Source of the DNA: an uncultured bacterium
GTDB taxonomy: Bacteria > Zixibacteria > MSB-5A5 > CAIYYT01
Direction of reading: 5' to 3'
NCBI GenBank assembly: GCA_963726455.1
Contig: CAVSCK010000003.1
Coordinates: 704,001 to 768,000, forward strand
Length of the DNA stretch: 64,000 nucleotides
Below are positions 1 to 25,373 of this stretch, piece by piece. The notes under the pieces were generated by a model. It searched no databases and was not told where the DNA came from. It saw nothing but the letters and a program-made list of their open reading frames with translations. The number at the start of each line of letters is the position of its first letter. The first letter of the stretch is position 1. The position numbers and the translations under genes were made by a program.

Positions 1-216
1 CTTGGTGATTGCGGCTTTCTCGTCATCGGGTGATTCACGATACCACTGAACCGAAATTGACGACTTGAATTCCTCGTTCTTGCAGTCACCAAACTGGTCA
101 TAGAGATTTATCAGCCAGACCTGTAGCGCCTCCGTAATGCCATCGGACCGGTAGATCACATGCTGCGATCCCGGTGTATCGGGAAATGTACCGTATATCA
201 GGTGGTCGATCTTCAT
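1..216 (-). CDS. Partial CDS running off the window edge; N-terminus resembles GTPase-associated protein 1 N-terminal (GAP1-N) domains
   Basis: Manual translation from ATG at 216: MKIDHLIYGTFPDTPGSQHVIYRSDGITEALQVWLINLYDQFGDCKNEEFKSSISVQWYRESPDDEKAAITK, open to base 1, directly downstream of the GTPase gene. Family call is by motif resemblance only. Confidence 0.55.
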   Translation of the reverse strand, partial: MKIDHLIYGTFPDTPGSQHVIYRSDGITEALQVWLINLYDQFGDCKNEEFKSSISVQWYRESPDDEKAAITK

Positions 217-287
217 TGGTGCATGGAAGATTGATGAGCCGGTGGCGAGCTTATCATGTTCACACACGGAACGGTGTAGCAGACATA

Positions 288-2150
288 TTAGGGTAACTTG
301 GGTGGCTGTCCCGATTTGAGCTTGACGACAATCCCGTAATCCTTTCCGAAATCAAGGGTGTAGCCCTCGGTGAGCTTCGGATAGAAAGTTTCAATCGGAT
401 TCTCGACGTCCTGTGGCACCGGTTCACCCGTGCTGGAAGGACTGAGGTCGATGAACTTCGCGTGCACCGGGGCGTTGCCTATTCCGGTCACCTGCTTTTC
501 CACTTTGGGTGAATCACCTAGAAGATTCGCGAAGTCGACCGGTGGATTGTCACCGACCTGAATCACGACCTTGCTTTTCGGACGGAGGTTCTCGACTGCC
601 AGAGTGATCTGGAACGGTAGTATCTGTGCCGTCGCCATGCCGGCCTTGAGTTGCGCAGGAGACGCCTCTACTTGCTTCACGAATACAGCATCGAGACTAT
701 CCTTGGGATGATCCTGGAAAAGTTTGGTGATACCGGCTTCAAGCGCCGCCTGTTTATCGGTAGCCGGCAAAGTTGCCACCGAATCTTTCAGCCGCTTGAA
801 ATCATCAGCAGCGGCTTTGGTTTTTTCATCGTAATTCGGCTTCGGCGGTTCTTTCTTTTCCTGTTCGGTTTTCTCGACAGAAATGCGACTATCAATAAAC
901 TGCTGTCGTTCTTTTACAAACTGAATCAGCGGCGCGGCGCCGAAGAACTTGCTGACAGGCGTCTTGTCGTAGTAAGCGGTGTATTTCTCTTTGATGACTT
1001 TGGCCTGGTTCTCGGTGAATTGGCCGTTACTCGTCCGCAACTCGTCCACCAACTTGGTCTCCGCGCGGTCCAGCATGCTATAGAGCTTCAACTGATTGTA
1101 CAGGTTGACAATGCAGAACAGTGCCACCCACATCAAGCAGAGTGCAAACACCCACTTCACCAGGTATCGCCAGAATGCTTTGCGCTTATTGAACATGATG
1201 CGCCGGAATGCCCACTGGAGCGGATCGGCTACGCCGGACGAAGTCAAATCGCGCGGTGGCTCAATATCGCCAGTCGGCCGCTTGGCGATCGCGCCGGTCG
1301 AAGACACGAAGAAGACCTGGAAATCGAGCGTATAGGCACTCACCGAGTCAATGAAATTCGCCAAGGTGTGGCTGATACGCTCGGTCGTCTTGGCCCATAC
1401 CTCGCCAAAACGGCGGTTGTTGACTTTGACAAGTCCGCGGATGAAACTATCCTTGCGCCGGCCTTTGTATAGAGATGCACCACCCGGCACGAGATCGACG
1501 GGATTGATCTTTGAGAATCCGTCCAGGAAATCGGCCTTGGTAATCACGATACCCACCGGCACGCGCTTGGGCACGCAGTCATGCAGGTCGTGCAGGATGG
1601 TCTGAAATGCGGCGATCTGCTCCCGCAACAAGACATCAGTCTCTAGCACCGAAGCGTCAAGGAAGAACAAAGCCGCGCGCGCAAAGGGGAAGAAGCGCGC
1701 GAACTGTTTGCGTAACTCGCCCGGCTGGGCAATCGAGAGGGTTTCTCCCTTATAATCAACGGTATAGAACTTCACGCCTTTGCGAACCGACATGTCGAGG
1801 CCGAATCTGAGAATGCGCGTTTCGGACGTCATCGTCGGGAATTTGCGCTCCCCTTCGATCTCAACTTGCCGGCCTTCTTTGATGCGCAGCAATTTCCCGC
1901 GCATCATATTGTAGTTCTCGATCAGATTGGCGGCGGTATCATTGTCCAGAGGGGACAGTTTGAAATCTTCGTTGCCCTTTAACAATTCGTAGAGCACTGA
2001 GAAGTAAACCGTCTTGCCCGCGTTGGAATGCCCGAAGACGAGCACAACATTATCGTCATGATCAAATGGCGCGTCCGCTGCCTTGGGAGGCGCAGCCGAC
2101 TGCTTCTTGAAAATACCGAAGGCCTTCTTGACAAGTTCCAATGGGCTCAT
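288..2150 (-). CDS. Membrane-anchored TRAFAC-class GTPase-domain protein (N-terminal GTPase, one TM helix, C-terminal extracytoplasmic region)
   Basis: G1 GHSNAGKT, G2-like FPTMTS, G3 DYKGE, G4 TKAD; hydrophobic segment WVFALCLMWVALFCIVNLY; start overlaps the stop of the upstream gene. Confidence 0.8.
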   Translation of the reverse strand: MSPLELVKKAFGIFKKQSAAPPKAADAPFDHDDNVVLVFGHSNAGKTVYFSVLYELLKGNEDFKLSPLDNDTAANLIENYNMMRGKLLRIKEGRQVEIEGERKFPTMTSETRILRFGLDMSVRKGVKFYTVDYKGETLSIAQPGELRKQFARFFPFARAALFFLDASVLETDVLLREQIAAFQTILHDLHDCVPKRVPVGIVITKADFLDGFSKINPVDLVPGGASLYKGRRKDSFIRGLVKVNNRRFGEVWAKTTERISHTLANFIDSVSAYTLDFQVFFVSSTGAIAKRPTGDIEPPRDLTSSGVADPLQWAFRRIMFNKRKAFWRYLVKWVFALCLMWVALFCIVNLYNQLKLYSMLDRAETKLVDELRTSNGQFTENQAKVIKEKYTAYYDKTPVSKFFGAAPLIQFVKERQQFIDSRISVEKTEQEKKEPPKPNYDEKTKAAADDFKRLKDSVATLPATDKQAALEAGITKLFQDHPKDSLDAVFVKQVEASPAQLKAGMATAQILPFQITLAVENLRPKSKVVIQVGDNPPVDFANLLGDSPKVEKQVTGIGNAPVHAKFIDLSPSSTGEPVPQDVENPIETFYPKLTEGYTLDFGKDYGIVVKLKSGQPPKLP

Positions 2151-3061
2151 CGGTACGTCTCCACGACACTATTGGTCTGTTTCAATTCAAGTATTTTCGC
2201 GCGGTGTTGCTTTTCCCAGAATGGACGCACACTCACCGCGGCATAAAGAAATAAGAGAGTCAGAACCAGATAGACGATGTAAACCGGCCAGCGGTCGCGA
2301 AGCACATGAAACACAAAGCGGTAATTGACCACCGACGTAATTGCCGAACCGATCGAATCGAAGAATTTCTTAATCGCCAGGACAAACCGGCTCTTGCCAC
2401 GATAGATATCGTTAACATTGAGATACCACGCCGCAAATTCGCTTTGGTCAGACATTCGACGAAGTTCTTCCTCGGGTGCAAACGAGCGAATGTCAGCTTT
2501 GCGCCCTTGCAATGTGCTGGCGGCGATGTGCAGCATCTTTTTCTGCCATGAATCAGTGCGAACAATTCTCGTAGCGGAGGAAGACACCTGATCTGTTTCG
2601 CGGAAATTGGCCGCAATTTGCGCGTAGCGATTCAGGAGCATCGACTTTAGCGCGTTTTCCTGCTTGCCAAAACGGCGGATTTTCTCGCCAAAAATCAGCG
2701 GCGCTACGGTCATTTCGATGAATTGGCTGTCGTCGGACGTGCCGCGCAATTTCTTGGCGGCCAAAAATGCGTTCTGGCATTGTTGCGGGGGGCGTCTGAC
2801 ATACCAGAAATACAGTGGCAGCAGGTTGGCTACCACCAGCGACAACGGCTGTGCCTGCCGGGGAACGGTATTGACGCGAAGCTTCAAGTGCTCGTCAATT
2901 ATGTTTCCATTTTCACCGGTCATGTCGAGGCGGTCCAGTTCATTGAAGTATGCCTCACTCTCGCGCAGAAACACGTCGGCCGAAAAATCCGGCTGTTGCT
3001 TCTCATAGCGATTGAGCTGGATGAAGATCGAATTGATCAGCGCTTTCAGTTTTTCCGACAT
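2147..3061 (-). CDS. Hypothetical T6SS-associated protein with a C-terminal membrane anchor
   Basis: 304 aa, soluble helical N-terminus, single TM WPVYIVYLVLTLLFLYAAVSV near the C-terminus; 6 nt after tssK. Confidence 0.65.
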   Translation of the reverse strand: MSEKLKALINSIFIQLNRYEKQQPDFSADVFLRESEAYFNELDRLDMTGENGNIIDEHLKLRVNTVPRQAQPLSLVVANLLPLYFWYVRRPPQQCQNAFLAAKKLRGTSDDSQFIEMTVAPLIFGEKIRRFGKQENALKSMLLNRYAQIAANFRETDQVSSSATRIVRTDSWQKKMLHIAASTLQGRKADIRSFAPEEELRRMSDQSEFAAWYLNVNDIYRGKSRFVLAIKKFFDSIGSAITSVVNYRFVFHVLRDRWPVYIVYLVLTLLFLYAAVSVRPFWEKQHRAKILELKQTNSVVETYR

Positions 3062-3067
3062 ACGCTC

Positions 3068-4543
3068 TTATCGCGACCTGCTGAAGATCGCCACATGGTT
3101 CATCTTGACCGCTTCCAGCGCGGCGCGATCCACCTGTCCGTCGATAATTATATTCAGACGATCCAGCCGACTGCTCTTAAGCGGGAAATATTCGTTGGGC
3201 TGAATCAGCCAGAAGTCGGGATTTGTAACGTCGTCGACCGGCTTGCGTGCCACCGATGCGGCGGCGATGTCGTCAACTTCGTTGGCACCCAGGTATATGA
3301 TAACGTTGCTGGCATATTGAATCGGGAGCACCTTTTTGTCGAGCCGCACAATCACGTCCTCGGTACCGCGCGGATCGACACCGTCAATGATGATGTGGTG
3401 CCGATTGTTGCGGAATGAATACTTGACGGCGCCGTGATGTTGCAGAAGGAACCGGAAGCCGTCACGTTCGATTGAATCGGCAGCCCTTCCAGCGGCGCCA
3501 GAGGCATAATAGCTCAGAATTGCCGCGACAAACTTGAGCGCCTTCTCGGTGTCGTCAAAGAATTGCGTCATTTGATCGTAACCGTACTGGCGAGTCTGGT
3601 AGTCACGCAATTCAGGAAGGACCGTTCCGCCGGCAACAGTGCCCGAATCTACGGTCACTTGCGCATTGCGGACATATTCCCGCAACTCGGGATAAATCAG
3701 AAATCCCTGCTGAAATCCGCCCACGAGATCAGTAAAGGAATCTATCAAGGCGCGGCTGCCAACACCGGCAAAACCGTCGAACAAGCGATTGTAGCAGTAA
3801 TTCACAAAATGCAGCAGTGTCTCGGCCTGCAGGAAGACGCCGCGAATGGTTTCTTCCTCGGCTGCCGAGGGCCGGCTCTTCGTCTTGGCACGAACCTCGG
3901 CAATTGCCGCCAATCCGACCCGCTGAATCTCGTCGACCACTTTGCGGAGGCGCTCCATGCGCGAAACCACGGCCTTGCCACAGGTAGTATTCAGCACGGC
4001 AGGAACAAAGTCGGATCTGATTTCGAAGTCGTTTCCGGCGCGTACCAACTCCGTAATTTGAAATCCGCAGGATGAACTAAGACTCTCGGACGGGCCTACC
4101 GAAAGAGTCAGCCGCGGAACCTGGAACGGAAACCGACTCAACTGTTCGCCCGGAAGCGGGTCGCCAAACATTGTCCGATCTTGCGGCGCGGCATATAAGA
4201 AGATCGGCAGTCGCTCGCGAGATTCTTTGGCCAGATCGATCTTCAGTTCCACGGAGTGATACTTGGTGAAATCTTCATTGACATGTATCGGAGTTCCATT
4301 CGGCATCAGTGCGACGCACCGGGTTACTGATAAATAAAGGATGTTGCCGTCGCGGCGTAATTGCAGTTCCAGCGGTTCGTTGCGTATGGTCGCGGGTTTC
4401 GCAATACCATAGCCGCCGGCCAAGTTCGATGCCGCCCAGCGGTTGAGGTTGAGTGCGAAAGTCTCCTGCTGGTTCAGATGGACGCTGGATACCAGCATGC
4501 CATCAATCCAGTTAACTCCCCAAACATTGAATTCATCCATCAT
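3068..4543 (-). CDS. tssK: T6SS baseplate protein TssK (subtype iii-like)
   Basis: N-terminal VNWIDGMLVSSVHL motif, later SDFVPAVL motif; position after tssG; start taken at MMDEF (4543). Confidence 0.75.
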   Translation of the reverse strand: MMDEFNVWGVNWIDGMLVSSVHLNQQETFALNLNRWAASNLAGGYGIAKPATIRNEPLELQLRRDGNILYLSVTRCVALMPNGTPIHVNEDFTKYHSVELKIDLAKESRERLPIFLYAAPQDRTMFGDPLPGEQLSRFPFQVPRLTLSVGPSESLSSSCGFQITELVRAGNDFEIRSDFVPAVLNTTCGKAVVSRMERLRKVVDEIQRVGLAAIAEVRAKTKSRPSAAEEETIRGVFLQAETLLHFVNYCYNRLFDGFAGVGSRALIDSFTDLVGGFQQGFLIYPELREYVRNAQVTVDSGTVAGGTVLPELRDYQTRQYGYDQMTQFFDDTEKALKFVAAILSYYASGAAGRAADSIERDGFRFLLQHHGAVKYSFRNNRHHIIIDGVDPRGTEDVIVRLDKKVLPIQYASNVIIYLGANEVDDIAAASVARKPVDDVTNPDFWLIQPNEYFPLKSSRLDRLNIIIDGQVDRAALEAVKMNHVAIFSRSR

Positions 4544-4583
4544 CAGTTTCACCCATTTAGAACTTGAGGTGCAATATATCTTG

Positions 4584-5501
4584 TCATGCTGTTTCCCGCA
4601 AGAACGTCGAGAAACCCAGGTAAGCCGTACGAGATTCTTCCCCCGGCACAAACGGAGACACGCCGGGAACGAAGTTGTATCGCACCAGAGCGCGCTGATG
4701 CGCGGGCGCGAACAACACTGTCAGATTATCTACCAGATCCCGGCGCGTTCCGGTCGGCGCGAGATCGCGGATATCGGATATTTCGAGGCCATTTACATTT
4801 ATCATGAAAGTGGAGAAATTCTCCTCAAAGGTTGATCCCGGGACAAAATCACGTCCGAGCCGGGAGTTCGCCTTGCCGAGAGAATTTCGAAAAGGCTCGG
4901 GCACGAGATTCTCCTCCGGAATGTTTTCATCGACCGTAACCTGCTTCTTCAGGAATGCCGGCAGTACTCTCTCATAAAGCAGTTTCCTGCCACGGAAGAA
5001 CGGCGCGAAGAAACGTAGCAGGAGCAGGAATCGCCGGTCTTCCTTCGCTATGGACGGCAGATCGCCGCCGAAACGGTCCCAGTATAATAGCTCTGCATCG
5101 CTGTCGTCGATACAGAATAACAGTCTGAGTTTGAGAATGTGGAAGGCAATCCAGAAACGGTACGTGATAGTATCGAAGGCGCTCCAGAACTCAAGGTACT
5201 TGTTTTCCATGACTCCCGGGTGGTGGTCCGACTCATCCATCTGTTCCACGAAAAAGGTGTCAGGGAAATGGTTCTTGAAAGACGGCAGATATGCCGCCAC
5301 CACGCGCTCCTCACGCCTGGACGTACGCGCCGTAAGGGTGCGGATCGCCTCAATGTCGGTTACGAAACCGCCCTGAGCTTCATGACTGATAAATGCGAAT
5401 TCCGCCGCATCAATTCCCAGCGAAGCCAGCAGAAGTGAAAACTCGGTGAGACGGATATGCTCGTTGATGCGGTAATCTGTGGCGACAAAACCGGTTTTCA
5501 T
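4584..5501 (-). CDS. tssG: T6SS baseplate protein TssG
   Basis: LGKANSRLGRDFVPG and FMINVNGL resemble the TssG C-terminal motif; translationally coupled to tssF. Confidence 0.7.
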   Translation of the reverse strand: MKTGFVATDYRINEHIRLTEFSLLLASLGIDAAEFAFISHEAQGGFVTDIEAIRTLTARTSRREERVVAAYLPSFKNHFPDTFFVEQMDESDHHPGVMENKYLEFWSAFDTITYRFWIAFHILKLRLLFCIDDSDAELLYWDRFGGDLPSIAKEDRRFLLLLRFFAPFFRGRKLLYERVLPAFLKKQVTVDENIPEENLVPEPFRNSLGKANSRLGRDFVPGSTFEENFSTFMINVNGLEISDIRDLAPTGTRRDLVDNLTVLFAPAHQRALVRYNFVPGVSPFVPGEESRTAYLGFSTFLRETA

Positions 5502-7252
5502 GCTTCCACCAATCGCGCTTCCAGATGCAGGTTAAGCGGCGTGTAGCTATCGAGATATTCTGAAAGGCGTTGAACCAGGAATCGCCGTTCATCATCGGAA
5601 ATCTTCACGTCAGTACGAAGTCGCACATCAACTATCACCGACGGCAACAACCCGCCGGCGGTGCGGCTGACTCCGCGCGCGGCTTTGGCTTCGACAATTC
5701 GACTGTCAAAGTTGCGCGTCAGATATTCGATTTCTCCCTCTGACAATGCCACGCCGTGGTTGCGCAGGAAGAACCCCGTCAGGCGCTTCATCTCTTCGCG
5801 CGAACGAACGTCCGAGCCACCCGACGAAGTCACCAGATTGCGGATAGTTTGTATCTGCGGATGCGGCTTTGCCAGTTCAAAATCGATTTCGGCGCCGATC
5901 CCGTTGCCACTGTTGCCCTCAGTCACGGAGTATTCTACCACCACGAAATCGGGCGACGCTTTGCCGGTGGGAACAAAATCAAATTTGATTTTCAGCCCGT
6001 CTTCTTCTTCCACAATCATATATTTGCGAGGATTTCCAAAGGCCGTGAGGTCGAGATGGTTCGAATACTCGTCGTCATTGGAATCCCAGACGCGGTCGAT
6101 CGAAAACAGCCGGTCCGGCAACGAACCCGCTTCTTCATCTTCATACTCGAAGAGGTTAACTTCCAGCACCGGCTGGCCCATCGTGTACTTATTGCGATGA
6201 TTTTTGCGGCGGTTGATCGCCAGAATCGTGTTGCTGTCGAAGAAACGGAACTTACGCAAATCGCCTACACGTTCGTCTCTGGCCAGATCGATTCGCAGCC
6301 ACAGACGCGGTGCCTTAAGGCCGCTGAAGTCGATGTGCGAAAACTTGCTTTGCAACTGAGGCGGCAAGAGCATCTTCTCTGCCTTCGCATATTGTTCCTG
6401 CGGAACATGCACAAAACCCTTGGCGGGCGCCAAATAGTGCTTGAAATGCCAGAGCAGACGGCCCGCAGTCAAGAAATCTGAACTGTACAGCCGACTCTGA
6501 AAACTGCTTTCGAGCTCAAATTCGCGGATATCGAGATGCTTGAATATCTCCAGTCGGTCATGGAAGTTTCCCGGCTTGAACGGTGGGGTACGTTGCCCCG
6601 TCGTCTCGACATGCCAATCTACCCAGTTGAGCATCTGTCCGGCCGGCAAGTCCGGTCCGGTATACAGTCTGATGGCGTCGATATCCTCAAGAGGCAAGCC
6701 GGTGGTTATTCCTATATATATGGTACCGCCCAATGGTGGTGGGGCGCTTCGCTGCATCGTGCGGTAGTGCGATGACTGCAGCGTTTCTTCCCACTTGTCC
6801 GCCTCCGGCGGGAGCGCCTTGAGCACGCGGAAATAGTCGCCCGATACGAAAAATACCAGATCGGCGTTGATATCGAAAATGTCCTGGTCATGAAGAGGAT
6901 AGAACGAATAATCGCGCTGCTGCGCGCCTGGCAAGCGACAGATGAATTCCATTTCGGTGTCGACCTGTGCGCGCTTGTCGGAGCAGGAACAAGATAACAT
7001 GGTGAATGCCGGTATGGGCCGACGCAGTCCCGTGACAAAGAAATTCGTGATCATCGTGTCGATGACGGTCTCGGCGGCCTGCTTGAGTTTGTCTTCAGTC
7101 TGAATCGCGTGGAAGGCGAAGCCCTTGAGCATGAGCAGAAGCGCCGGATCCAACTGTTTCTCGCCTGATGGAACCTGATAGCCCCAGAAACGCAGCCGGT
7201 CTACAAGTTCATTATATACGCGCTCTTCGCGATCTGTCCACTTGGCGTTCAA
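5498..7252 (-). CDS. tssF: T6SS baseplate protein TssF
   Basis: 584 aa; N-terminal LDPALLLMLKGFA and RRPIPAFTM; C-terminal YSVTEGNSGNGI and SSGGSD baseplate-wedge motifs; between tssE and tssG. Confidence 0.8.
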   Translation of the reverse strand: MNAKWTDREERVYNELVDRLRFWGYQVPSGEKQLDPALLLMLKGFAFHAIQTEDKLKQAAETVIDTMITNFFVTGLRRPIPAFTMLSCSCSDKRAQVDTEMEFICRLPGAQQRDYSFYPLHDQDIFDINADLVFFVSGDYFRVLKALPPEADKWEETLQSSHYRTMQRSAPPPLGGTIYIGITTGLPLEDIDAIRLYTGPDLPAGQMLNWVDWHVETTGQRTPPFKPGNFHDRLEIFKHLDIREFELESSFQSRLYSSDFLTAGRLLWHFKHYLAPAKGFVHVPQEQYAKAEKMLLPPQLQSKFSHIDFSGLKAPRLWLRIDLARDERVGDLRKFRFFDSNTILAINRRKNHRNKYTMGQPVLEVNLFEYEDEEAGSLPDRLFSIDRVWDSNDDEYSNHLDLTAFGNPRKYMIVEEEDGLKIKFDFVPTGKASPDFVVVEYSVTEGNSGNGIGAEIDFELAKPHPQIQTIRNLVTSSGGSDVRSREEMKRLTGFFLRNHGVALSEGEIEYLTRNFDSRIVEAKAARGVSRTAGGLLPSVIVDVRLRTDVKISDDERRFLVQRLSEYLDSYTPLNLHLEARLVEA

Positions 7253-7255
7253 ATG

Positions 7256-7603
7256 CTAGATCTCCCAGGAAAGGTCAAAGCGTTGCCCGTCACGAGCGGT
7301 GCCATATACGCGACAAGTAAAGGTGGCAGTGATGGTCTCTTCAACCTTGTCGGATATTGTCACGTTTACGGAGATGCCCATGTACCGCCGGAATTGTTCG
7401 ATGACGTGATTGCGAACTTCAGTCTTAAGGTCGGTGGAATATTCGGGAGTAAAGTATGCCGAACGACAGCCCAACTCGGGATCAGGGCGATAGCTGCCCA
7501 GCTCGGTTTCAATGAGAAACCGGGCAAATTCCTCCGATTGGCTGCTGCGCAGGAAGCGGCAGTCTTTTATTTCTAATGGTACCCGAAGCGCTTCGTCGGC
7601 CAT
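7256..7603 (-). CDS. tssE: T6SS gp25-like baseplate protein TssE
   Basis: 115 aa; LIETELGSYRPDPELGC resembles the gp25 T..GE...P.FG motif. Confidence 0.7.
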   Translation of the reverse strand: MADEALRVPLEIKDCRFLRSSQSEEFARFLIETELGSYRPDPELGCRSAYFTPEYSTDLKTEVRNHVIEQFRRYMGISVNVTISDKVEETITATFTCRVYGTARDGQRFDLSWEI

Positions 7604-7606
7604 AGT

Positions 7607-9466
7607 TTAGTTTAGTGAAATCGGCGATCCCTTGACGGTAACCGGTCCTTTCCCGCTAATATCCATCATTGCCGCACTCTGTTGCAGGTTCCCCTGCGCA
7701 TCCAGCGTCATCATGCCGCTGCTTTTGACTTCGGCGCCGCCGCCGCCTGCTTTGATCTTGCAGGAAGTCTTGGCGTCAATCGACACGTTCTGCGCCTCCA
7801 ACTTGAAATCACCGTCGGCCTTAAGAGTAATATTACCTTTGACGGTGAGGTTGTAATCTTTATCGGCAGTGATGTTGATTGTATTCTCTTTCGAATCTAT
7901 GATCATCGTGTTCTTGCCGGTGCGATCTATAATCTTGATCTTACCCGAGCCATCTTTATCATCGATGGCGATCTGGTGCCCCGAACGTGTATAGATAACC
8001 TTGAGATCATTCTTGCTGGCTTCGCCGTCGCTGCCCTTCGGATCGATTGCACTTTGCGGCGGCTTGTCGGTGCCATTCCACATCGCCCCCAGCACGATCG
8101 GCATGTTGGGATCGCCCATTTCAAAGGCGACCAAAACCTCGTCCGCAATTTCGGGCATGAAGTAGATACCTCTATTATTTCCGGCATACCCACTGATCGT
8201 GCGCAGCCAGGGACTGATCAGGTCGCTGCCATTTTCACCCTTGGCAGGGAATTTTACTTTGACGCGTCCGCGTAAGTCCGGATCAACATTATCGGTGACG
8301 ATCGCGGTTATCGGATCGGTACGCACTTCATGCTTGACCTGCGGCCAGGGCGGACAGGCGCTTTCCAGCGGGCTTGCGGTCACAAAATTATGGTAATCGG
8401 TGCCGGTCTCGATATGGTGCATGATTGAGGTTATGATAAAGACGCCCGTGTAGGTGTCGCCCATGCCTTCAAGTTGAATCGCGTCCCCAACCTTCAGTGA
8501 CGGGACGTTAGTTTGCAGGTGACATTCAGTCAACGAGCCAAGTTGCTCGGCCTGCATCGCTTCCGTGACTTGCTTTTCTTGCGCCGCCTTGGAATCGCCG
8601 CGCGTGGGAAGTATCGCTGACGACACCTTGCCCATATTCTGTCCCGAGGCGTTGTAGGCCTTCTTGGCTATCCCCGAGAATTGCGTTTGGGGAGCCGGCT
8701 GGTTCTTTTCGATTACGCTCTTGGCGGCCTCGTCCCAGGTGTAGTTCTTGTACTTGAAGCCGGTCACATTCATTTTGAGATTCGCCGAGCCAATGTGTTT
8801 CTGCCAGGTCAGAGTATGAGTGTTCCGGCTTTTCTTCTCCTCGACGACCAGCTTCTTGCCGTCATAGAACACCCAGCCCGGATAAGTCTTCCATCCAGAT
8901 GTCAGATATTCCCAGTCGGTCAAGCCCCATTTGGTCCAGAAATCTCTGGTGGCGGCGCCGCTAACTGAGATTGACCCGGTATCGATATTGTATTGACCCA
9001 TAATCGTGCGGACGATGTCCTCAAATGACATATTCTCAAAGAAGACGTATCCCCGGCTCTGATCGGTGAGAATCGTCGGGCTCATGGCTTCGATTACGAT
9101 TCTGTTCATTTCACCGCCGGTGTTGGAAAACCCGACGTTCGTAATCAATCCAAAAAATTCAAGTGCCTCTCCGGCGGCGACATACTCGTCGGCGGGAGTG
9201 ATCTTAAGACTCACGCTTTTGCCGATCGTATCCTGATACTTGGTGGTCGACACAAACTCCCGGCCCTGGTTGGCGGCCTCGATGTCGAGCGAAAATTCCA
9301 GCACCAACCGATGATGAGCAAAGACGCTTTGCTCAAGCCGGAACGACTGCAACGGCCAGTTGACGGCGACGTTGGCTATCATAACCGTGGCTGACACCAC
9401 GCAGCGTGAGTGCACGTCGGCTTCAGTCATTTGCGGTCGGTTACTATTGGGATCAAGTTCCGGCAT
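7607..9466 (-). CDS. vgrG: T6SS spike protein VgrG/TssI
   Basis: gp27-like N-terminus, gp5 OB-fold VTDNVDPDLRGRVKV...PEIADEVLVAFEMGDPNMPIVLG, short beta-helix tail; no effector extension. Confidence 0.92.
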   Translation of the reverse strand: MPELDPNSNRPQMTEADVHSRCVVSATVMIANVAVNWPLQSFRLEQSVFAHHRLVLEFSLDIEAANQGREFVSTTKYQDTIGKSVSLKITPADEYVAAGEALEFFGLITNVGFSNTGGEMNRIVIEAMSPTILTDQSRGYVFFENMSFEDIVRTIMGQYNIDTGSISVSGAATRDFWTKWGLTDWEYLTSGWKTYPGWVFYDGKKLVVEEKKSRNTHTLTWQKHIGSANLKMNVTGFKYKNYTWDEAAKSVIEKNQPAPQTQFSGIAKKAYNASGQNMGKVSSAILPTRGDSKAAQEKQVTEAMQAEQLGSLTECHLQTNVPSLKVGDAIQLEGMGDTYTGVFIITSIMHHIETGTDYHNFVTASPLESACPPWPQVKHEVRTDPITAIVTDNVDPDLRGRVKVKFPAKGENGSDLISPWLRTISGYAGNNRGIYFMPEIADEVLVAFEMGDPNMPIVLGAMWNGTDKPPQSAIDPKGSDGEASKNDLKVIYTRSGHQIAIDDKDGSGKIKIIDRTGKNTMIIDSKENTINITADKDYNLTVKGNITLKADGDFKLEAQNVSIDAKTSCKIKAGGGGAEVKSSGMMTLDAQGNLQQSAAMMDISGKGPVTVKGSPISLN

Positions 9467-9534: not shown

Positions 9535-9558
9535 CACTATCTCAGTGCCCCGATGGGC

Positions 9559-9973
9559 TCATTTGCCTTTCCAGTCCTTCTTGTACTCGACACCGTTGAC
9601 ATCCACCAACTCGGCGGAAATCTCGAAGTACTCGTACATCTGCTCGTTCGGCATGGCCGACGTGGACGGAACGTGCTCTTCGTAGTGCGTGACAAAGCCG
9701 TTCTGCCACTTGAGAACCTTCAGTTCCTTCTTCAGGTTGGGATCCTTGAAGGTGATCTCACCGGCCTTGCGATTGACCTGCGAAGAGTCAAATGCCCAGC
9801 TGCGCGATGCCGACGTTGTCATCTGACTCGCGGCTGATCTTGATCTTCAGACCACACGGGATCGAACTGGGCTTGCCGTCCGTGGTGTCATGAGGCGTGA
9901 AGATTTCATAACTGACCGAGCGCACTTTGTCGAACTTCTCGCCGTCAATCTTGAGTTCTACTTCTTGTGCCAT
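9559..9973 (-). CDS. tssD: T6SS tube protein TssD/Hcp (subtype iii); one apparent +1 insertion near 9799
   Basis: ORFs 9788-9973 and 9559-9822 join into 137 aa on removing one base (GIAQ-WAFDS). Motifs SVSYE..DGKPSS..G.KI and GEITF..LKW..GFVTHYEE are typical of Bacteroidota-type TssD. Confidence 0.85.
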
Positions 9974-10082
9974 TGGTTGGCTTCCTCCTACTATCGTTTA
10001 CAGTCTCTGTTTCTCTGTTTCTGGGCTTCTTCCTGCCGCTTTCACCCATAACTGTCGAGATACCCCTCGGAGCGGTTCAGAA

Positions 10083-11497
10083 TTATTTTACCGCCGCCTG
10101 ACCCGACTCGTCGACCAGCGCTTCCAGCTTGACGACGTACTGCTTGATCGGCGTCTTGGTGTTGAGCGCCACTTCCAGCAACATCTGCTGGTTTTCGATC
10201 ATTTCGTTGGTCGCAATCACGTTGCAGGTAAAACCGTTGATCACTTTGTTCCGCTGCAGCAGACTCAGGAACTTGTTCAGATCGCCGTCGATCGACTTCT
10301 TCAGCTTGTCGTCGAAAGCCCTTGTAGACCTGCTGGTTGAGATAATTGCGCATCGTCTTGTAGATGTAATCGTAGGTGCGCTTGATCGTATAGTTGCGGA
10401 ACTTGGGATCCTTGCTCAGCGTGTCGGCGCCCATCGCCACGACATCACCCACATCACCCTGCCAGTTGAGCACGCAGTTGACACCCTTCTCGTTGATCTT
10501 GGTATTCTTGGCTTCCGACAATTTGATTCGAGTTCGCGAAACTCCGCCCAGCTTGCCGTTGGCTTTACCGGCGGACGGCGCCTGGATACCGATCTCGTTA
10601 TCATTTTTGTATATCAGGCCGGCTACCATCGGTGACGGCGGCAGCCACATCGCTTCTTTGTCGAAACGGCTTTCCGGCTTCTCGGCCTTGACGTAGTTGC
10701 CGAATACCGAGATGTACGCCTTGTACTCGTCGTTGCCACGCAGATCATCGTAAGCCGGATCGTCCAATTCGTCCGACCAGTTCTTCGTAAGTGTCGAAAT
10801 GTTTGAAGTCGGTCAGAATGTGCAGCTTGTTCGGCAGTCCCATATCGCGGGCGACCGTATCGATGTCTTTCACTGACCCCAGATAACCGGGAATAGCAGC
10901 AGAGGGCGTAGCTGTTCTTGATGTCGTAAAGCCCGTAGATATCGTGAATCTGCCGGTTGATATACTCGAACTTTTCACGATCGTTTGGATCGGTCAGATC
11001 GCTGATACCGACATTGGCGAAATAGGCATAGATTTCCGAATCCGGGCGCGCCGCAGCGTTCTGGAAGAACAGATCGATGCCGCGGATAGGCGGTTTCCAG
11101 CGGACGAATCGTTTCGTGAATGTTCTTCATGTTCTCGACGAGATTCTTGTCCGCCGCTTCTGATCATGTTGTCCAGTTTGTCCTTGAATTCGTCAGAGGT
11201 GACGTCATTCGGCCCTAACTGTTCAGCCCAAACTTGCAGACGCTGTTTCAGTTGGTTACGGCGATCTTTGAATTCGTCGGAAGTGAGAAACTTATTAAAT
11301 GATTCGTTCTTGGGATCGAGGAACTTTACACCCTCGATGTGTAAACCATCCTGGCTCTTGAAATGAGACAGGTGGTCTTTGACAAGCTCGTAGCCGACAA
11401 AACCGACTCCGAGGATGTCTTTTAGGTCAGCTTTTTCCTTGACCTTGGCTTCGGCTTGTGCCGATTCCTTTTGCAGATCTTTTTCTTCGTCAGCCAT
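10083..11497 (-). CDS. tssC: T6SS sheath large subunit TssC (DUF5458-like); five apparent +1 insertions
   Basis: Removing single bases near 11161, 11085, 10901, 10774 and 10320 gives a 469-aa ORF containing LETAYRGIDLFFQN, IPGYLGS, ILTDF and LPPSPMVAGLIY. Confidence 0.85.
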
Positions 11498-11514
11498 GAC
11501 TTCCTCGCAGCGGT

Positions 11515-11970
11515 TTACAGTTGATCGATATATGATTTAATGACCTTCATGAATTCCGCCTTCTTCTCCGGCGATGACAGGTCTTTTTTCAGCTTGGAAT
11601 TCGGTTTTTCCAGCAGGTTTTTCAGATTGCGCAGGATTTCCACTTCGTTGTACTTCGACTGAAGGTACTCATTCTTCTGAATGATCTCCATCGAACCGAA
11701 ATCCTTCATCGCGTTGAATTCCAGTTCGACCGTTTCTTCCGAGCCATCCTGCTTCTGGACGGTAACTTCCTGCGACGGACGGAAGGTCGTGAAGACTTCC
11801 TTGAGATTCTTGCAGCGGGTCAATTCCGGTTCGCTCTCTTCGCGCGAATTCAATTTGGTCAAGTAGACCATTTTGTTCGACGGAAGCAGATCGACCGGAA
11901 TAGAATCGCTCTTTTCCTTGTACTCCGTAGTGCCGATATGGGGAGCGGCAATACGATACTGGTCTGCCAT
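11515..11970 (-). CDS. tssB: T6SS sheath small subunit TssB (subtype iii)
   Basis: NKMVYLTKL..EPE..LKEVFTTFRPSQEV..ELEFNAMKDF matches Bacteroidota-type TssB; immediately before tssC. Confidence 0.85.
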   Translation of the reverse strand: MADQYRIAAPHIGTTEYKEKSDSIPVDLLPSNKMVYLTKLNSREESEPELTRCKNLKEVFTTFRPSQEVTVQKQDGSEETVELEFNAMKDFGSMEIIQKNEYLQSKYNEVEILRNLKNLLEKPNSKLKKDLSSPEKKAEFMKVIKSYIDQL

Positions 11971-11986: not shown

Positions 11987-13069
11987 CTATACTTTCACAA
12001 TTTCAAATTCGTCTTTGTTCATCCGCACTTCGACCTGCGAACCTTCCGGAAAGCGGCCGTCAATGATCGCCATCGAGAGCGGATTGAGAATCTCCTTTTC
12101 AATAAGCCGCTGCAATGGGCGCGCACCCATTTCGAAATTATACCCCCGGTCAGCCAGCGCCTTCTTGGCGTCAGCCGCACAGGTAATGGTCATCTTCTGA
12201 TCTTTAAGAATTCCATTGATCACTTTCAACTGGATATCGACGATAGCGCCGATGCCGACTTCTGACAACGGCCGGAAGATAATCCATTCCAGACGGTTCA
12301 GAAATTCGGGACGGAACTTGGTCTTCAGCACGTTCATCATTTCTTCCCGCTCGACCGGCTTGTTTTCGCGATAACAGTCCAGAATATAGTGGGCGCCGAA
12401 GTTCGAGGTCAGAATTATCATCGCGTTGGTGAAATCGATCGTGTTCCCCTGCCCGTCGGTCAGTCGGCCGTCGTCCATGATCTGCAGCATGATGTTGAAA
12501 ACATCGGGGTCCGCCTTTTCGACTTCGTCGAAAAGTACTACCGAAAAAGGATTGCGCCGCACTTTTTCGGTCAACAAACCACCCTGATCGTAGCCGACAT
12601 ATCCCGGCGGCGCGCCGATCAGCTTGGCGACGGAGTGCTTCTCCATATATTCCGACATATCAAACCGGACGATATTCGATTCATCGTTAAAAAGATATTC
12701 CGCCAATGTCTTCGCCAATTCGGTCTTGCCGGTACCGGTCGGTCCCAGGAATAGGAATGAGCCAATCGGGCGGTTATGCCGCTTGATTCCCGAGCGGGAA
12801 CGCCGTACCGCTTCCGAAATTGTCTTGATCGCGGAATCCTGGTCGACCACGCGTTTCTGCAGGTAGTCTTCCATATGCAGCAGCTTGGTCTTTTCATCTT
12901 CCATCATTCGCGACACCGGAATTTTGGTCCAGCGGGAAATGACAAAGGCCACGTCTTCAGGAGACAGTGTGGGATCGGTCTTGAAGACGAACTGTTCCAG
13001 TCGCTCCATCTTCTGAATGTTTTCCTTAAACCTGCTTATTTGCGTTTGTTCTTTTTCCATATTTCCCAC
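11987..13069 (-). CDS. tssH: ClpV/ClpB-family ATPase, second AAA+ module (D2) only
   Basis: RPIGSFLFLGPTGTGKTELAK, DMSEY, GAPPGYVGY, FDEVEKA, FRPEFLNR, GARPL. Confidence 0.85.
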   Translation of the reverse strand: MGNMEKEQTQISRFKENIQKMERLEQFVFKTDPTLSPEDVAFVISRWTKIPVSRMMEDEKTKLLHMEDYLQKRVVDQDSAIKTISEAVRRSRSGIKRHNRPIGSFLFLGPTGTGKTELAKTLAEYLFNDESNIVRFDMSEYMEKHSVAKLIGAPPGYVGYDQGGLLTEKVRRNPFSVVLFDEVEKADPDVFNIMLQIMDDGRLTDGQGNTIDFTNAMIILTSNFGAHYILDCYRENKPVEREEMMNVLKTKFRPEFLNRLEWIIFRPLSEVGIGAIVDIQLKVINGILKDQKMTITCAADAKKALADRGYNFEMGARPLQRLIEKEILNPLSMAIIDGRFPEGSQVEVRMNKDEFEIVKV

Positions 13070-13098
13070 TCAGTTTGATCGTGCTATCAAAGCAACGC

Positions 13099-14517
13099 TT
13101 ACTTGACCCGATCTTTCCAGGGTGCAAAGAGCTCATCGAATTCTTCATTAAACGCCTGTAGCTTCGACTTGATTTCCGGAGCGATCTTGGCGTCACTGTC
13201 GGTCTTAATACTGTCGCCTAGTTCCTGATTTAGTTCAGCGGCCATCTTCTTCAGCCCTTCCAGACTGTTTTTTGTGCGCGTACAGTTGAGTCGGAACGAC
13301 GCACAGGCCTCATCCAAAAGATCAATGGCCTTGTCGGGAAGGAAGCGGTCGCCGATGTATCGTTGCGACAGCCGAATTGACTCGTCCACGACCGAATCGG
13401 GAATGGCCAGACTGTGATGCTTGCTATACACGTTTCGGACGCCGGCCAGGATTTCCTGGGCTTCGTTGAATTTCGGCTCTTCCACCATCACACGTTGGAA
13501 ACGCCGATCAAGCGCCTTATCCTTTTCGATATATTTGCGATATTCTTCGTTCGTAGTCGCACCGATAACCTTAAACGCACCGCGTGCCAGTGCCGGTTTC
13601 AGCAGGTTCGCTGCATCCATACCACCGGCAGGATTGCCCGCCCCTACCAGCGTATGCACCTCATCGATGAACAATACGAGGTTACCTTTGCCTTTGGACA
13701 ATCTGGATACGAGGTTGTTGAATCTTTCCTCGAATTCGCCTTTATATTTGGCTCCAGCCACCAATTGTCCCAAATCGAGATTTAGAATGACTGAATCGTG
13801 AAGTTCGGGGGTGGTCTGCTTGTTGACGATCTGTAGCGCCAGTCCTTCCACCAGAGCCGACTTGCCAACTCCCGGCGGACCAACCAGAATCGGGTTGTTT
13901 TTCCGGCGGCGAATCAGCACCCGGCTGATATTGTAAATATCTTCCTGCCGCCCAAAAAAGTTGTCCAGCTCGCCTTTGCGGGCCTTCTCCGTAAGGTCTA
14001 CGCAGTACTTTACACCTTCGATGCCGACAGCGGTTTCACCGTCCTCGGTCGTGACCTGTGTTCCAGCGATTGACTGCACGACCTTCATGTCAGCCATCGC
14101 GTCAATTATCTTGCCTTCATCGAAATCGAGTCGGCGTAGGATTTGTTCCGATAGTGGCGAATCCTTTGAGACCAGCACCATCAGCACATGCTCTGGACGA
14201 ACTTCGGAATCGGAGTACTTCTCGGCTTTGTTGCCGGACGCAACCAACAGAGACTGCAGCGCCGGAGCTGCGGCGGGTTTGACTTCGTCGGTGGACAGCT
14301 TGCGCATTTTCGACAACTCATCCGCCAGCAAAGCTTCAAAATACTCGGGCTTCTTCCCAAGTTGCTTGAAAATGGCAGCGAGTTCGCCCCCTTCGTCGCG
14401 CAGCAACACGAGGAAGAAGTGGTTGGGAGTGATCTCGGCATGGAAGTAACTCTTCGCAAGTTCCTGAGCCCGCCGAATGCAATTTGTCAAGGTCGCAGAA
14501 TACGATCCTAAATCCAT
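13099..14517 (-). CDS. tssH: ClpV/ClpB-family ATPase, Clp-N repeats plus first AAA+ module (D1)
   Basis: Clp-N helices, [39 protein letters not shown]; ends in the coiled-coil linker region. Confidence 0.85.
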
Positions 14518-21856: not shown

Positions 21857-24800
21857 CTACTCCTTATGCGGTGGGCCGTACTGGTAGAACCAGTCTGCAC
21901 AACTGCAGGGGGCCGCACCACCGGAGAAAATATACTGGATCAGATACACGGCGTCCGAAATGTCCACGGAGCCATCGCAATTCGCATCTCCCGAGCAAAC
22001 CGCGTATGGTGTGGGAGCCGGACCGCCGGCAAAAATGTACTGGATCAAATAGACGGCATCGGAAATATCCAGCGCGCCGTCGCCATTGGCATCACCCGGA
22101 TAGCAATCACAGAAGGTGCAGCAGTGACCTATGTGCAGTGCAAAGATCGTGGCATCATTGAGATCGACGATGCCGTTGCAGTCATAATCGTTGCACGGAC
22201 CGCCGACAAAGTCGGGCTGCTTCACGCACAAGTCACCGTTGATGTCAAAGAAGCTCACCGGTACCGTACGTAAGAACTGACCGTTGACTATCAGTCCGGC
22301 CACGCATGGCCCGCACATCAACCCTCCGGCATCAACACTGAAGTAGTGGACACCGTTCCTGCAGGAATCCGGGAATACGCGCGGCCACGCCGGTTCCTCA
22401 TTCGGGCACGGTCTCGCCGGGCACTGGCTGAAATCAAGCCAGGTTCCGGTCAGGTCGCACACCAGGTTCCCGCAACTGTCTTTCTCCGTGACCGTGAATA
22501 TCGCATCCGATCTCGGGCATACCAGAATGCATGGGTCATTCGTGGTACTGTCACCGTACGCAGGACCCGGAGGACACGGTTTGGTTGGGCATACTACTGT
22601 CGCCCACTCGATCATCGTGTAGACAGGTAATCCCGGCTGAGGCGTCCCAATCAGAGGCGGTTCAATCGGCTGGTTCATCCGTTCGAATTGAATGATGTCC
22701 GCAAAGTTGTCCGGATAGTCGGTAATTTCCAGACCCAGCGGAATCGGCTGATTCGGGCACTGGAACAGGCGCGGCGCAACATTGTAGACGTCATGATTCA
22801 TTGTTCCGTGCGGACCCGACACAAACTGGGCGTCGTTGTGCACGATGGACGGATGCGCAGATCCAGCCGGCGGCTCACCCTCGGCATGATCGAAGTACGG
22901 ATCAGAGATGCAAATTCTGGTCGAGGTTGTGCAGACACCGGCAACCGTGACATAGTGTCCGCCGATGCGCGTGCAATACGGCGGATTGCCCGGAATTTCC
23001 TGCCAGAAACCCAGCAACAGAATCACATCCTGGCTGTGCAACACGCTATCACGTATTTGCTCGAACGTCGGCGCCGGGTGCTGCGAAATGATATACCGGG
23101 ACTGAAGGCCGGCGTTGGTGATCCACTGTTGCATGCCGAGCGCGAGCTGATGAATGTTGGTTCCGAAACCGCCCGGCAGGCAGTTCATCATCGGCGAGAG
23201 CATATTCACGTAATTGGGAACATTGCTCTGATCGTGATCATCCACCACCAGCGACGGACTTTGCAGCAGCGGATAATTGTCAATGACCGATGGCGGCGGA
23301 ATGGTGTTCGGCTCGAACTTGGAATCAAACCACCACAGGCAGTTGAGCGCGGCGAGCGGGCCGCAGAAACTCCAGCCGCCATTCCAACCTATCCAGCCGT
23401 TCTGCTTCTGGTCAAAATCAGGCATGCCGACTGGCGCATAATCAGGATATGGGAGCTTGTAGTATTCACAGGTCGATGGTGCCGGTTTCGGACACAGAAC
23501 CTCGGCGTTCTCTACGATAGCCCACATCGGCCCGGGCGGAGGTGGAAACGGACAGGTGGCCCCGCCGTTTTGATTATAGAAATCCGTGATGAATTGAGCG
23601 ACCGGATAGCCCGGCATGAACAAACATCCCTGATGCGGCTCGCACATCATCGGACCCATCGGTATCATATCCCAGATGTCATGGGATACAATTGCCGCAT
23701 CGTTGTGGGGAATGGCGGAAGGTGTGGCGTCGTAGTACGGATCAGAAAATGCAATTTTGCGATTGAGTGAGTCAATGCCCGCCACTGTGACATAGTGCCC
23801 ACCGATACGGCAGCAGTTGTTCGGATTGCCGTCGACCGAGACATAGAATCCGATCAGCAGTATCACATCCTGACTCCTCCGCACTTCATGTGCCAACAGA
23901 TCCCAGGTCAAACCCTGGCAATCATACTGCGTCAAGATGTAGTCGTTCTGCAATTGTCTCGATGCCAGCCACGCCAGAATACCGTTGTGCATATCGACGA
24001 TGTTGGTTCCCGGCGCGGTGATATTCGTGTTGAAGGCAGTTCCGAGCGCATTGATAAACGGAACGGGGTTCAGAGGATCATGGTCATCCCATAGCGGAGG
24101 CATTGTGGCGTAGGTTTGAACCAGCGGATATCCGTCATTGTAGGTTGGTGGTGGCACGGGATTAGGTTCAAACTTGGAATCGAACCACCAGAAGCAGTTG
24201 GCGACCGCCGTCGGGCCGCAATAGCCGTGGTCGATCAGTCCGTCAGGGGGAATACTGAAATCCTGTTTCTGATCGAAATCCGGCATACCATTTGGGCAAT
24301 AGTCAACATATCCCGGTTTGTAATAGAAACTCTGCGGACACGCCTGCGATACCGTTTCACCGGCAACCGATAAAATAGGGTTACCCGGTACCGGCGGATT
24401 CCAGAGGTCGTACCATTCGACCCATTGACCGGTCATATAGAACCAGTTCACGCAGGTATCGGCCGTGGCGTTGTCAAACAGTATCGACGGAAATGGTCCG
24501 GCACCGGCATCGGTATATTCGAGACCAACATAGAAAGGTCCGTTAACGCAGCAGGGCGCAGGAAAAGTCGCCGTTCCCACTGCCGGATAGCCAAATTCTG
24601 CTTGACCGCAGGTTACGGTAAAGCGAGAGAGTTCCGTTCCCGGCCCTCCGCATACGTTTCCAGCCGTGGACATTCCGTAAACTACGACGTCCATCGTAAC
24701 CGGCCAGACCGCGCCTGTGAATCCGTAGAGCGTGAAGCTCAGACTGTTCAACTGCAGCGGATATTGTGGAGCCGCGCAGAGCACGCTCGGGTCAAGATAA

Positions 24801-25024: not shown

Positions 25025-25373
25025 AAGCCTACCTCCTTGCAGACACAAAGTATGAGTTTTTGAACTGGCGAAATGACCTCGCCAGTAGACTTATTTGATT
25101 TTTCTGACCGCTATAGGAATGCTCGGGGGTTCCTGCCCGAATCCATCTACAATGTCGCGTTCCACGTCCGATTTGTCAAGTGGAAAAGTGTACCTCCGGC
25201 ACCACATCTTGAGCACATGAGTTTGAGTTGTGGACGCCAAAGTCTCCGATTGCACGACGAATACTTGACGGCTCGGACTCGTCGCGGTCGTTCGATATGA
25301 TGTCGAATATCCCCGGCGATAGCTGAGGCATTCACAGATAACTTATTGCTACACAGTATATTTCAAATAATAC

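Follow-up and report, generated by a model that had tools for sequence, protein, structure and literature searches.

Downstream of the baseplate gene tssK of a type VI secretion system (T6SS), a stretch of 64,000 nucleotides (nt) from an uncultured Zixibacteria bacterium (assembly GCA_963726455.1, contig CAVSCK010000003.1, positions 704,001 to 768,000; the whole stretch is called the window below) encodes a tail-anchored protein of 304 amino acids (aa), called TA, a membrane GTPase of 620 aa, and a third protein, called GAP1, the gene of which runs past the window start. These genes probably constitute a conserved, T6SS-specific membrane and switch module of a distinct T6SS lineage. The lineage is common in Zixibacteria and also occurs in a high-GC lineage and at least one further phylum. 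Its core set consists of TA, which stays with tssK, the inner-membrane GTPase, and a signal-peptide protein of ~175 aa, which stays with the GTPase. Some clades have, in addition, a GAP1-N2 gene between the GTPase gene and the signal-peptide gene. The family membership, the gene order, the co-occurrence with the T6SS core, the conservation of the motifs and the lack of matches to TssJ, TssL, TssM, TssN and TssO are directly established.

Linkage to the T6SS and distribution

Relatives of the GTPase were collected by a pattern scan with two peptide patterns over one genome per species, a procedure that favours close relatives. The scan gave 117 GTPase relatives, and 80 loci were kept. Most of these are labelled Zixibacteria, many are labelled 'Ignavibacteria', and a few are labelled Calditrichota, Latescibacterota or Krumholzibacteriales. 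The window proteins were then used in tblastn over the 80 loci, a gene being counted where the order is conserved. By this measure, tssK is present in 70 of the 80 loci, tssF in 66, vgrG in 61, tssG in 56, tssC in 55 and tssB in 54. Iterated profiles, run on the open reading frames (ORFs) of 81 loci with the window's own included, detect TA in 78 loci, the signal-peptide protein, a fourth partner adjoining the GTPase, in 64, and GAP1 in 17.

A GTPase ORF was called in 76 loci (the window's own counted), and tssK lies upstream of it in 68 of them. As to the other eight, the flank is too short to judge in five, one is the cut-off locus of the window itself, and two (L047 and L065) lack T6SS genes upstream. 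In the genomes of the latter two, the T6SS core is found elsewhere and ends in tssK-TA, and the signal-peptide gene remains beside the GTPase gene. This arrangement indicates that TA travels with the baseplate genes, adjoining tssK even when the GTPase sits elsewhere, and that the signal-peptide protein travels with the GTPase even when the latter is apart from the T6SS core. Directly upstream of the separated GTPase gene of L065, there are three tandem ORFs of 397-402 aa (L065:498-4373).

In a sample of 151 genomes of the phylum, the GTPase is found in 79 and this type of TssK in 78, while 72 genomes have neither. Comparison of the lists shows that all 78 genomes with this TssK fall within the 79 with the GTPase. 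The sole GTPase genome without it, G131, has a completeness of 88%, and its GTPase gene lies on a short contig. Of the 151 genomes, 16 encode canonical TssM; they belong to other families of the phylum and carry it in tssJ-tssK-tssL-tssM clusters. Seven genomes of the same phylum and other families (L098-L104) have canonical T6SS-i clusters with this order, and only one genome of the sample (G112) has both canonical TssM and the GTPase type. The first-pass annotation, made from the letters of the window, had allowed for homologues that are unlinked to T6SS genes in other genomes and had suggested co-occurrence with tssK as a check. The linkage is found almost everywhere, both at the level of loci (68/76) and of genomes (78/79), and no genome has this TssK alone. 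The module is not peculiar to the window but is a conserved feature of the whole T6SS lineage.

It is important to point out how closely the genes are packed. The tssK stop codon (TAA, 3068-3070) is separated by 6 nt from the ATG of TA at 3061, and the TGA stop of TA and the ATG of the GTPase gene share 4 nt as ATGA (2147-2150), which is the spacing that had been read from the letters at first. The 6-nt gap and the 4-nt overlap suggest translational coupling. The conserved ATG of GAP1, at window position 216, is 71 nt past the stop of the GTPase gene (288).

Another option to be considered is that the genes form an independent DO-GTPase/GAP1 conflict (defence) system that is merely located beside the T6SS, for example as the cargo of an island, and plays no part in the machine. 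Stand-alone conflict systems in which DO-GTPase and GAP1-N2 are the core and the effectors vary have indeed been described (Kaur 2020, PMC7159879), and the GTPase and signal-peptide genes are sometimes found away from the T6SS core. The genome counts given above (the single GTPase-only genome being incomplete), a gene order that is fixed across deep divergence, and start and stop codons that overlap or nearly touch make this option very improbable indeed. Furthermore, Pfam scans of the cluster reveal neither the FNIII-repeat component nor the zinc ribbons of the GAP1-N2 systems, no second match to the DO-GTPase2 family (PF19993) was found in the window's genome, and searches for TssM, DotU, TssN and TssO found no other membrane-complex genes in that genome.

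A quick tree of the GTPase (72 rows, midpoint-rooted, no outgroup, ORFs of 600 aa or less excluded) contains three deep clades, with proteins of 620-640, 681-685 and 727-746 aa, respectively. GAP1 is present in 16/16 members of the first clade. In the second, it is called in one of three, and a second member has a partial tblastn match at the contig end. In the third, which is the main clade, it is present in 0/53. In the phylum sample, GAP1 is found in 15 of the 151 genomes, that is, 13 that make up the whole family of the window, one of another family, and one with a weak match containing a stop codon. GAP1 is thus clade-limited, yet it is no local oddity.

The GTPase is also present in 7 of the 61 genomes sampled from the phylum of L071. 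One genome of this phylum, with a GC content of 70%, has the order hcp-hcp-vgrG-tssE-tssF-tssG-(four unassigned ORFs)-tssK-TA-GTPase (814 aa)-GAP1 (1008 aa), and a second genome of the sample has the cluster end tssK-TA-GTPase-GAP1 on a short contig. A metagenome scan was run with one protein as the query, and a high-GC metagenome contig carries TA, GTPase, GAP1 and the signal-peptide protein in this order, on one strand throughout. In the T6SS-linked GAP1 of 1008 aa (L112:608-3634, P0061), a transmembrane (TM) helix is located around residue 340, and there is a region rich in alanine as well as a long C-terminal region with a beta-rich part. This GAP1 is also among the long matches of the GAP1 profile discussed below. 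It ends in ...LPELP, similarly to the GTPase proteins (...PKLP or ...PELK), and the periplasmic parts of the two may be related.

Proteins of the module

We now turn our attention to the individual proteins. The GTPase has the motifs GHSNAGKT (G1), DYKGE (G3) and TKAD (G4) and a single hydrophobic helix at ~335-357, preceded by NKRKAFWR. In the AlphaFold2 (AF2) model, with a mean predicted local distance difference test score (pLDDT) of 77, an N-terminal amphipathic helix is followed by the GTPase domain (34-300) and by a long helix that includes the TM segment, and the C-terminal ~260 residues, on the periplasmic side, form a helical bundle (380-510) and a beta-sandwich (512-613). The description of this protein in the first-pass annotation, a 620-aa GTPase with these three motifs, one TM helix and an extracytoplasmic part, is hence borne out. 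The PDB fold matches of the model are generic TRAFAC GTPases (G-alpha, atlastin, SR-beta, Rab and MglA), and a PDB sequence search with the GTPase profile gives only chance matches (E>=0.11).

By sequence, the DO-GTPase2 family is the nearest one, and the GTPase appears to belong to it. The Pfam model of this family matches the window protein with 19 bits (E 0.0012, model positions 2-173 of 226) and all 23 aligned relatives at E<=0.01 (best E 1.7e-7), while DO-GTPase1 is matched by 8/23 and IcmF-related_N by 3/23. Precomputed PF19993 annotation is found on 18 of 34 database relatives, and the nearest named protein-atlas clusters are also DO-GTPase2 (score 0.91), which can be taken as a lead only. 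The GTPases of other lineages (L109, L112 and L113) pass the DO-GTPase2 cut-off of 27 bits, with 32.2-33.6 bits, and at the same time match the profile of the window family at 8.6e-76 to 5.7e-83. A search for shorter stand-alone GTPase relatives returned seven fragments only, and nothing meaningful came out of scanning TA, the GTPase and GAP1 with PADLOC and NCBIfam.

Among the related ORFs longer than 500 aa, G1 is kept in 74/74, G3 in 74/74 and [NT]KxD in 70/74, which means that the motifs are not there by chance. Their conservation across all clades, which are only ~25-30% identical to each other, speaks for a functional nucleotide site. In 16/18 members of the window's clade, the Walker-B glutamate that follows DxxG is kept, while at this site the main clade has lysine in 31/53 and glutamate in 8/53. 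The catalytic details may therefore differ between the clades.

The GAP1 of the window's genome is a soluble protein of 272 aa, counted from the conserved ATG. Pfam GAP1-N2 (PF20013) matches it with 17.7 bits (E 0.0037) and matches 12/12 of its aligned relatives at E<=0.05 (best E 1.5e-5). A profile of 12 sequences, scored against 1.84 billion representative proteins, retrieves 90 proteins at E<=0.001, of which 27 reach E<=1e-10 and 9 reach E<=1e-30. Many of the 90 are ~950-1000 aa long and are aligned over their first ~270 residues. When ten of the 90 were chosen and scanned, GAP1-N2 was found in seven, six of them above the cut-off, and one of those chosen also has a sub-threshold GAP1-M match. 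The window protein aligns to about residues 25-270 of the ~1000-aa relatives and has no C-terminal part. Since these relatives match over their first ~270 residues, it would be a short GAP1 consisting of the N and M regions, rather than the full three-domain form (GAP1-N, GAP1-M, GAP1-C), and the third gene probably encodes a short GAP1-N2 protein. From the truncated gene in the window, a GAP1-N-like protein had been proposed, together with a comparison against DO-GTPase and GAP1-N profiles. This comparison, run here with Pfam, supports the proposal through the matches in 23/23 and 12/12 relatives, respectively, as does the retrieval of above-cut-off GAP1-N2 proteins by the profile. A complex prediction for GTPase residues 1-330 with GAP1 has a score of 0.18, below the mark of 0.32, and, made without controls, speaks neither for nor against binding.

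TA has only one hydrophobic helix, at ~257-279, with ~25 residues behind it, and is on this ground C-tail-anchored, in agreement with the initial reading. Its AF2 model (pLDDT 83.5) is all-helical with one C-terminal TM helix. None of the 19 relatives examined has a Pfam family, the single listed match being a chance one. The fold search against PDB gives no match at E<=0.001, and TssL is absent among the 50 matches listed.

The signal-peptide protein of the window's genome has 178 aa and is encoded just outside the window start (L002:12748-13284). Its centre is rich in glycine and lysine, and there is a hydrophobic segment near the C-terminus. It has no Pfam family, and its look-alikes in the protein atlas are all unnamed clusters. 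As judged from the models and predicted segments, the topology of TA, the GTPase and the signal-peptide protein suggests that they are suited to an envelope complex.

Comparison with known anchors and conflict systems

The module resembles TssJLM in several respects. It has the same position after tssK, it combines two inner-membrane proteins, one C-tail-anchored and the other with a GTPase-like NTPase domain in the cytoplasm and a periplasmic part, and it includes a small exported third protein. The order of tssK, tail-anchored protein and NTPase membrane protein is the one seen in the canonical tssJ-tssK-tssL-tssM clusters of the phylum. The domain order of the GTPase (NTPase, TM helix, helical part, beta domain) is also the same as that of TssM if the latter is read from after its last TM helix. 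These similarities could be explained if TA, the GTPase and the signal-peptide protein were extremely diverged orthologues of TssL, TssM and TssJ in an ordinary TssJLM-type T6SS. TssM has in fact the hallmarks of a GTPase, with Walker A, DxxG and (N/T)KxD motifs, and hydrolyses both ATP and GTP (Ma 2012, PMC3346141).

To compare the proteins directly, we used TssJ, TssL and TssM profiles from canonical clusters of the same phylum, which contain only 7-10 sequences each. With hhalign, the GTPase aligns to the N-terminal region of TssM over 18 columns with a probability of 31%, and to full-length TssM over 17 columns with a probability of 17%. The alignable columns are confined to the surroundings of G4, (I/V)TKAD.L.GF in the GTPase versus FTKCDL..GF in TssM, so the two share a TK[AC]D.L.GF neighbourhood, and past these 17-18 columns there is no Pfam or profile-profile similarity. 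A weak match to IcmF-related_N (PF14331) is found in the window protein and in the 3/23 GTPase members mentioned above, but it covers only 39 residues with 16.7-18 bits (cut-off 25), compared to the 23/23 for DO-GTPase2. In the opposite direction, the N-terminal regions of canonical TssM match no DO-GTPase family (0/10 at E<=0.1).

The other two proteins are even further from their presumed counterparts. The hhalign probability is 0.4% for TA versus TssL and 1.4% for the signal-peptide protein versus TssJ. The DotU Pfam model matches 0/19 TA members and no TssL was seen among the fold matches listed, such that the feature shared by TA and TssL is limited to the C-tail-anchored topology. Unlike TssJ, the exported protein is not a lipoprotein. 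Moreover, the GTPase has one TM helix and not three, and its periplasmic part is ~260 aa, while full-length TssM of the phylum has ~1120-1140 aa in all. It also belongs to the DO-GTPase2 type and is accompanied by a GAP1 partner, and a bona fide GAP1-N2 gene after the GTPase gene is a hallmark of DO-GTPase systems. On the basis of these differences, orthology to TssJLM is considered to be quite improbable.

In the window's genome, which is 100% complete, no match to TssM exceeds the cut-off and DotU is not matched, with an E. coli control positive for both. TssN (PF17555) and TssO (PF17561) have no match there either, in a search in which no control genome scored above the cut-off, and they are not listed in the Pfam scans of TA, the GTPase and the signal-peptide protein. 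That the genes are simply divergent TssL/TssM or TssN/TssR had been named at the outset as the outcome that would undermine the proposal of something new; the profile and fold tests give none of TssL, TssM, TssJ, TssN and TssO. The accompanying statement, that the genes copy the topology and order of TssL and TssM with different sequences, holds for the topology and the order. However, since TssM itself has GTPase hallmarks, the different sequences are still compatible with a very deep common ancestry of the GTPase domains. The function would thus be analogous to that of the canonical anchor, and an ancient common origin of the GTPase and TssM domains is possible.

Like TssNQOPR of T6SS-iii, the module would be a non-canonical anchor that is encoded within the T6SS locus. 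The sheath and tube proteins of the cluster match Pfam TssC (PF17541) and TssD (PF17642), two families that we take to have been built on Bacteroidales T6SS proteins. The organisms discussed here are labelled FCB group, a superphylum that includes Bacteroidota. The topologies of the T6SS-iii components are different, however, and a GTPase is found only in the present module: TssN is described as having five TM helices, TssQ, TssO and TssP an N-terminal TM helix each, and TssR as a lipoprotein, with no GTPase domain in the account given (Bongiovanni 2024, PMC10781749).

The likeness to GAP1-N2 conflict systems consists of a DO-GTPase2-family gene followed by a GAP1-N2 gene, of membrane-associated proteins, with a C-terminal TM helix in the GAP1 of one lineage, and of the Walker-B glutamate in the window's clade. 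Such systems have been linked to the assembly of the polymer-forming proteins tubulin and HSP70 (Kaur 2020, PMC7159879). On the other hand, there is one GTPase here, without a zinc ribbon and with the TM helix C-terminal instead of N-terminal. It should be noted that a second GTPase copy occurs in 38% of the described systems and zinc ribbons in 60% of the DO-GTPases, that is, frequently but not universally (Kaur 2020, PMC7159879). An FNIII-repeat protein, contained in the GAP1-N2 systems of the same study, is also missing, and GAP1 has only the N and M domains here and is absent from the main clade. Finally, the linked 'effector' would be a complete T6SS, a case that the main text of that study does not mention; T6SS is named there only in a reference, and the supplements may list such neighbourhoods (Kaur 2020, PMC7159879).

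Gene content of the T6SS cluster

All features in Table 1 are on the minus strand of the window, the start of which falls within the tail end of the T6SS cluster. In the order of transcription, the genes are clpV (two genes), tssB, tssC, hcp, vgrG, the gp25-like tssE, tssF, tssG, tssK, TA, GTPase and GAP1, which means that the T6SS core set (tssB, tssC, hcp, vgrG, tssE, tssF, tssG, tssK and clpV) is found in one cluster. The tssK ORF spans 3068-4651, and the conserved start at 4540 gives the length of 490 aa that matches the relatives. Beyond the window start, the genome sequence continues with the rest of GAP1, the convergent signal-peptide gene and then housekeeping genes, malic enzyme being the first.

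Table 1. Positions of the module genes and of the T6SS genes in the window, with the basis of each assignment.
Feature	Position	Strand	Basis and remarks
GAP1-N2-like gene, N-terminal 72 codons	1..216	-	whole gene 272 aa, L002:13398-14216, extends past window start
Membrane GTPase, 620 aa	288..2150	-	DO-GTPase2-type domain (by similarity), one TM helix, periplasmic part
TA (C-tail-anchored, all-helical), 304 aa	2147..3061	-	matches no known family
tssK (baseplate), 490 aa from conserved start	3068..4540	-	TIGR03353 E 1.1e-8, below cut-off; alignment; co-occurrence with GTPase
tssG	4584..5501	-	PF06996 E 1.9e-9
tssF	5498..7252	-	weak PF05947 and TIGR02243 matches; position conserved across loci
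tssE-like gp25 protein	7256..7603	-	conserved position; L048 orthologue matches PF04965 at 9.8e-13
vgrG	7607..9466	-	PF04717 1.3e-22; PF05954 8.4e-13
hcp, frameshifted in assembly	9562..9973	-	intact orthologue matches PF17642 at 3.6e-20
tssC, frameshifted in assembly	10086..11497	-	intact orthologue matches PF17541 at 3.6e-50
tssB	11515..11970	-	PF05591 E 4.9e-6
clpV as two genes	11987..14517	-	N-domain and AAA-1 13099-14517; AAA-2 11987-13069

The two-gene form of clpV, with the N-domain and AAA-1 in one piece (~472 aa) and AAA-2 in the other (~360-377 aa), could in principle be due to a frameshift. This was rejected, as the same form is found in two other genomes, one of the same family and one of the main clade (L106 and L107), and it looks like a natural split of the disaggregase. 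In L108, a single ORF of 813 aa occupies the clpV position.

In comparison with the intact orthologues of L004, tssC has five single-base insertions and hcp has one (window 9550-11510). All six changes are insertions, in a stretch that is otherwise 92% identical to L004 with differences mostly at third positions, and neither the remaining cluster genes nor the other long ORFs examined in and beside the window are split. Consensus errors in a conserved region fit these insertions at least as well as real decay does.

Some additional observations can be recorded here. In G008, a genome of the same genus, contig C229 yields a second tssK match in addition to the full copy; it is partial and contains an in-frame TAG. 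Two further proteins have no relation to the T6SS cluster, a 1063-aa protein with a dockerin domain and a weak peptidase C39-like match (window 21857-25048) and a 258-aa protein with a PEP-CTERM sorting signal (L002:8490-9266).

Proposed function

On the basis of the above, we propose that the module proteins would form an envelope-spanning anchor, as TssJLM or TssNQOPR do in other T6SS types. The cytoplasmic domain of TA would dock to the baseplate via TssK. The GTPase protein would span the inner membrane and, considering its topology and the pairing of the genes, its periplasmic domains could contact the exported signal-peptide protein. The nucleotide state of the GTPase could then gate assembly or firing, and GAP1, where present, could set or read this state. 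The role of the GTPase as a firing switch is something that we infer. The gating proposed here parallels the nucleotide-dependent role reported for TssM in Agrobacterium, where mutants in nucleotide binding lose both the TssM-TssL-Hcp complex and Hcp secretion (Ma 2012, PMC3346141).

A different scenario is that the proteins, though specific to the T6SS, serve solely to regulate it or to chaperone its assembly, for example in positioning or as a post-translational checkpoint, with the structural anchor missing or unrecognised. GTPases usually act as switches, no outer-membrane partner has been recognised, and GAP1 is dispensable in most clades, all of which would be in line with this scenario. 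However, three of the four proteins have a membrane or periplasmic topology, the conservation of TA, the GTPase and the signal-peptide protein comes close to that of the core genes, and no alternative anchor genes are conserved in the clusters. We regard a purely regulatory role as unlikely, although it is the strongest of the alternatives considered.

Several results weigh against the proposal of a membrane and switch module. In the window itself, the matches that define the two families are below the thresholds, the GTPase with its 19 bits against a gathering score of 27 for DO-GTPase2, and GAP1 with its 17.7 bits against a cut-off of 24 for GAP1-N2. The Walker-B glutamate that defines the DO-GTPases is present in only 8/53 members of the main clade. 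A solid GAP1 match is found in only ~14 of the 79 GTPase-positive genomes, and in 0/5 further main-clade genomes, and a GAP1-dependent switch can therefore not be general. An outer-membrane component is not recognised, as a lipobox-like motif occurs in only 1/64 members of the signal-peptide protein, which has no Pfam family. Lastly, because tssC and hcp are frameshifted in this assembly, the T6SS of this particular genome may be a non-working machine.

One can speculate further, and with a rather small chance of being right, that the membrane platform ancestral to this T6SS lineage is the DO-GTPase2/GAP1-N2 pair and that canonical TssM is a derived relative of the same GTPase stock, for which the GTPase hallmarks of TssM and the TKxD.L.GF motif would be hints. 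GTPase-centric conflict systems would then generally be nucleotide-gated membrane platforms that nucleate polymeric weapons, and GTP binding or hydrolysis, tuned by a GAP1 that senses the state of the envelope, would set when and where the sheath assembles and fires.

Implications

As far as can be judged from the sequences, a T6SS lineage with a GTPase-centred membrane module in place of the usual anchor proteins appears to be widespread, and neither this T6SS type nor a connection of T6SS with DO-GTPases was found in the literature searched. The way in which a T6SS is anchored and triggered is known for the proteobacterial type (TssJLM) and, since 2024, also for the one of Bacteroidota (TssNQOPR). 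The present module would be a third solution, and this candidate is found in about half of the sampled Zixibacteria genomes (79/151) and in at least one other phylum. The lineage also offers a possible relative for comparison with the NTPase domain of TssM, the origin of which is unsettled.

The GTPase switch and its partners, as assigned here by similarity, seem to be otherwise known only from predicted bacterial conflict systems. The DO-GTPase/GAP1 pair, so far only a computationally predicted core of such systems, would here be tied to a physical machine that can be assayed, and this tie to the T6SS makes the role of the DO-GTPases testable.

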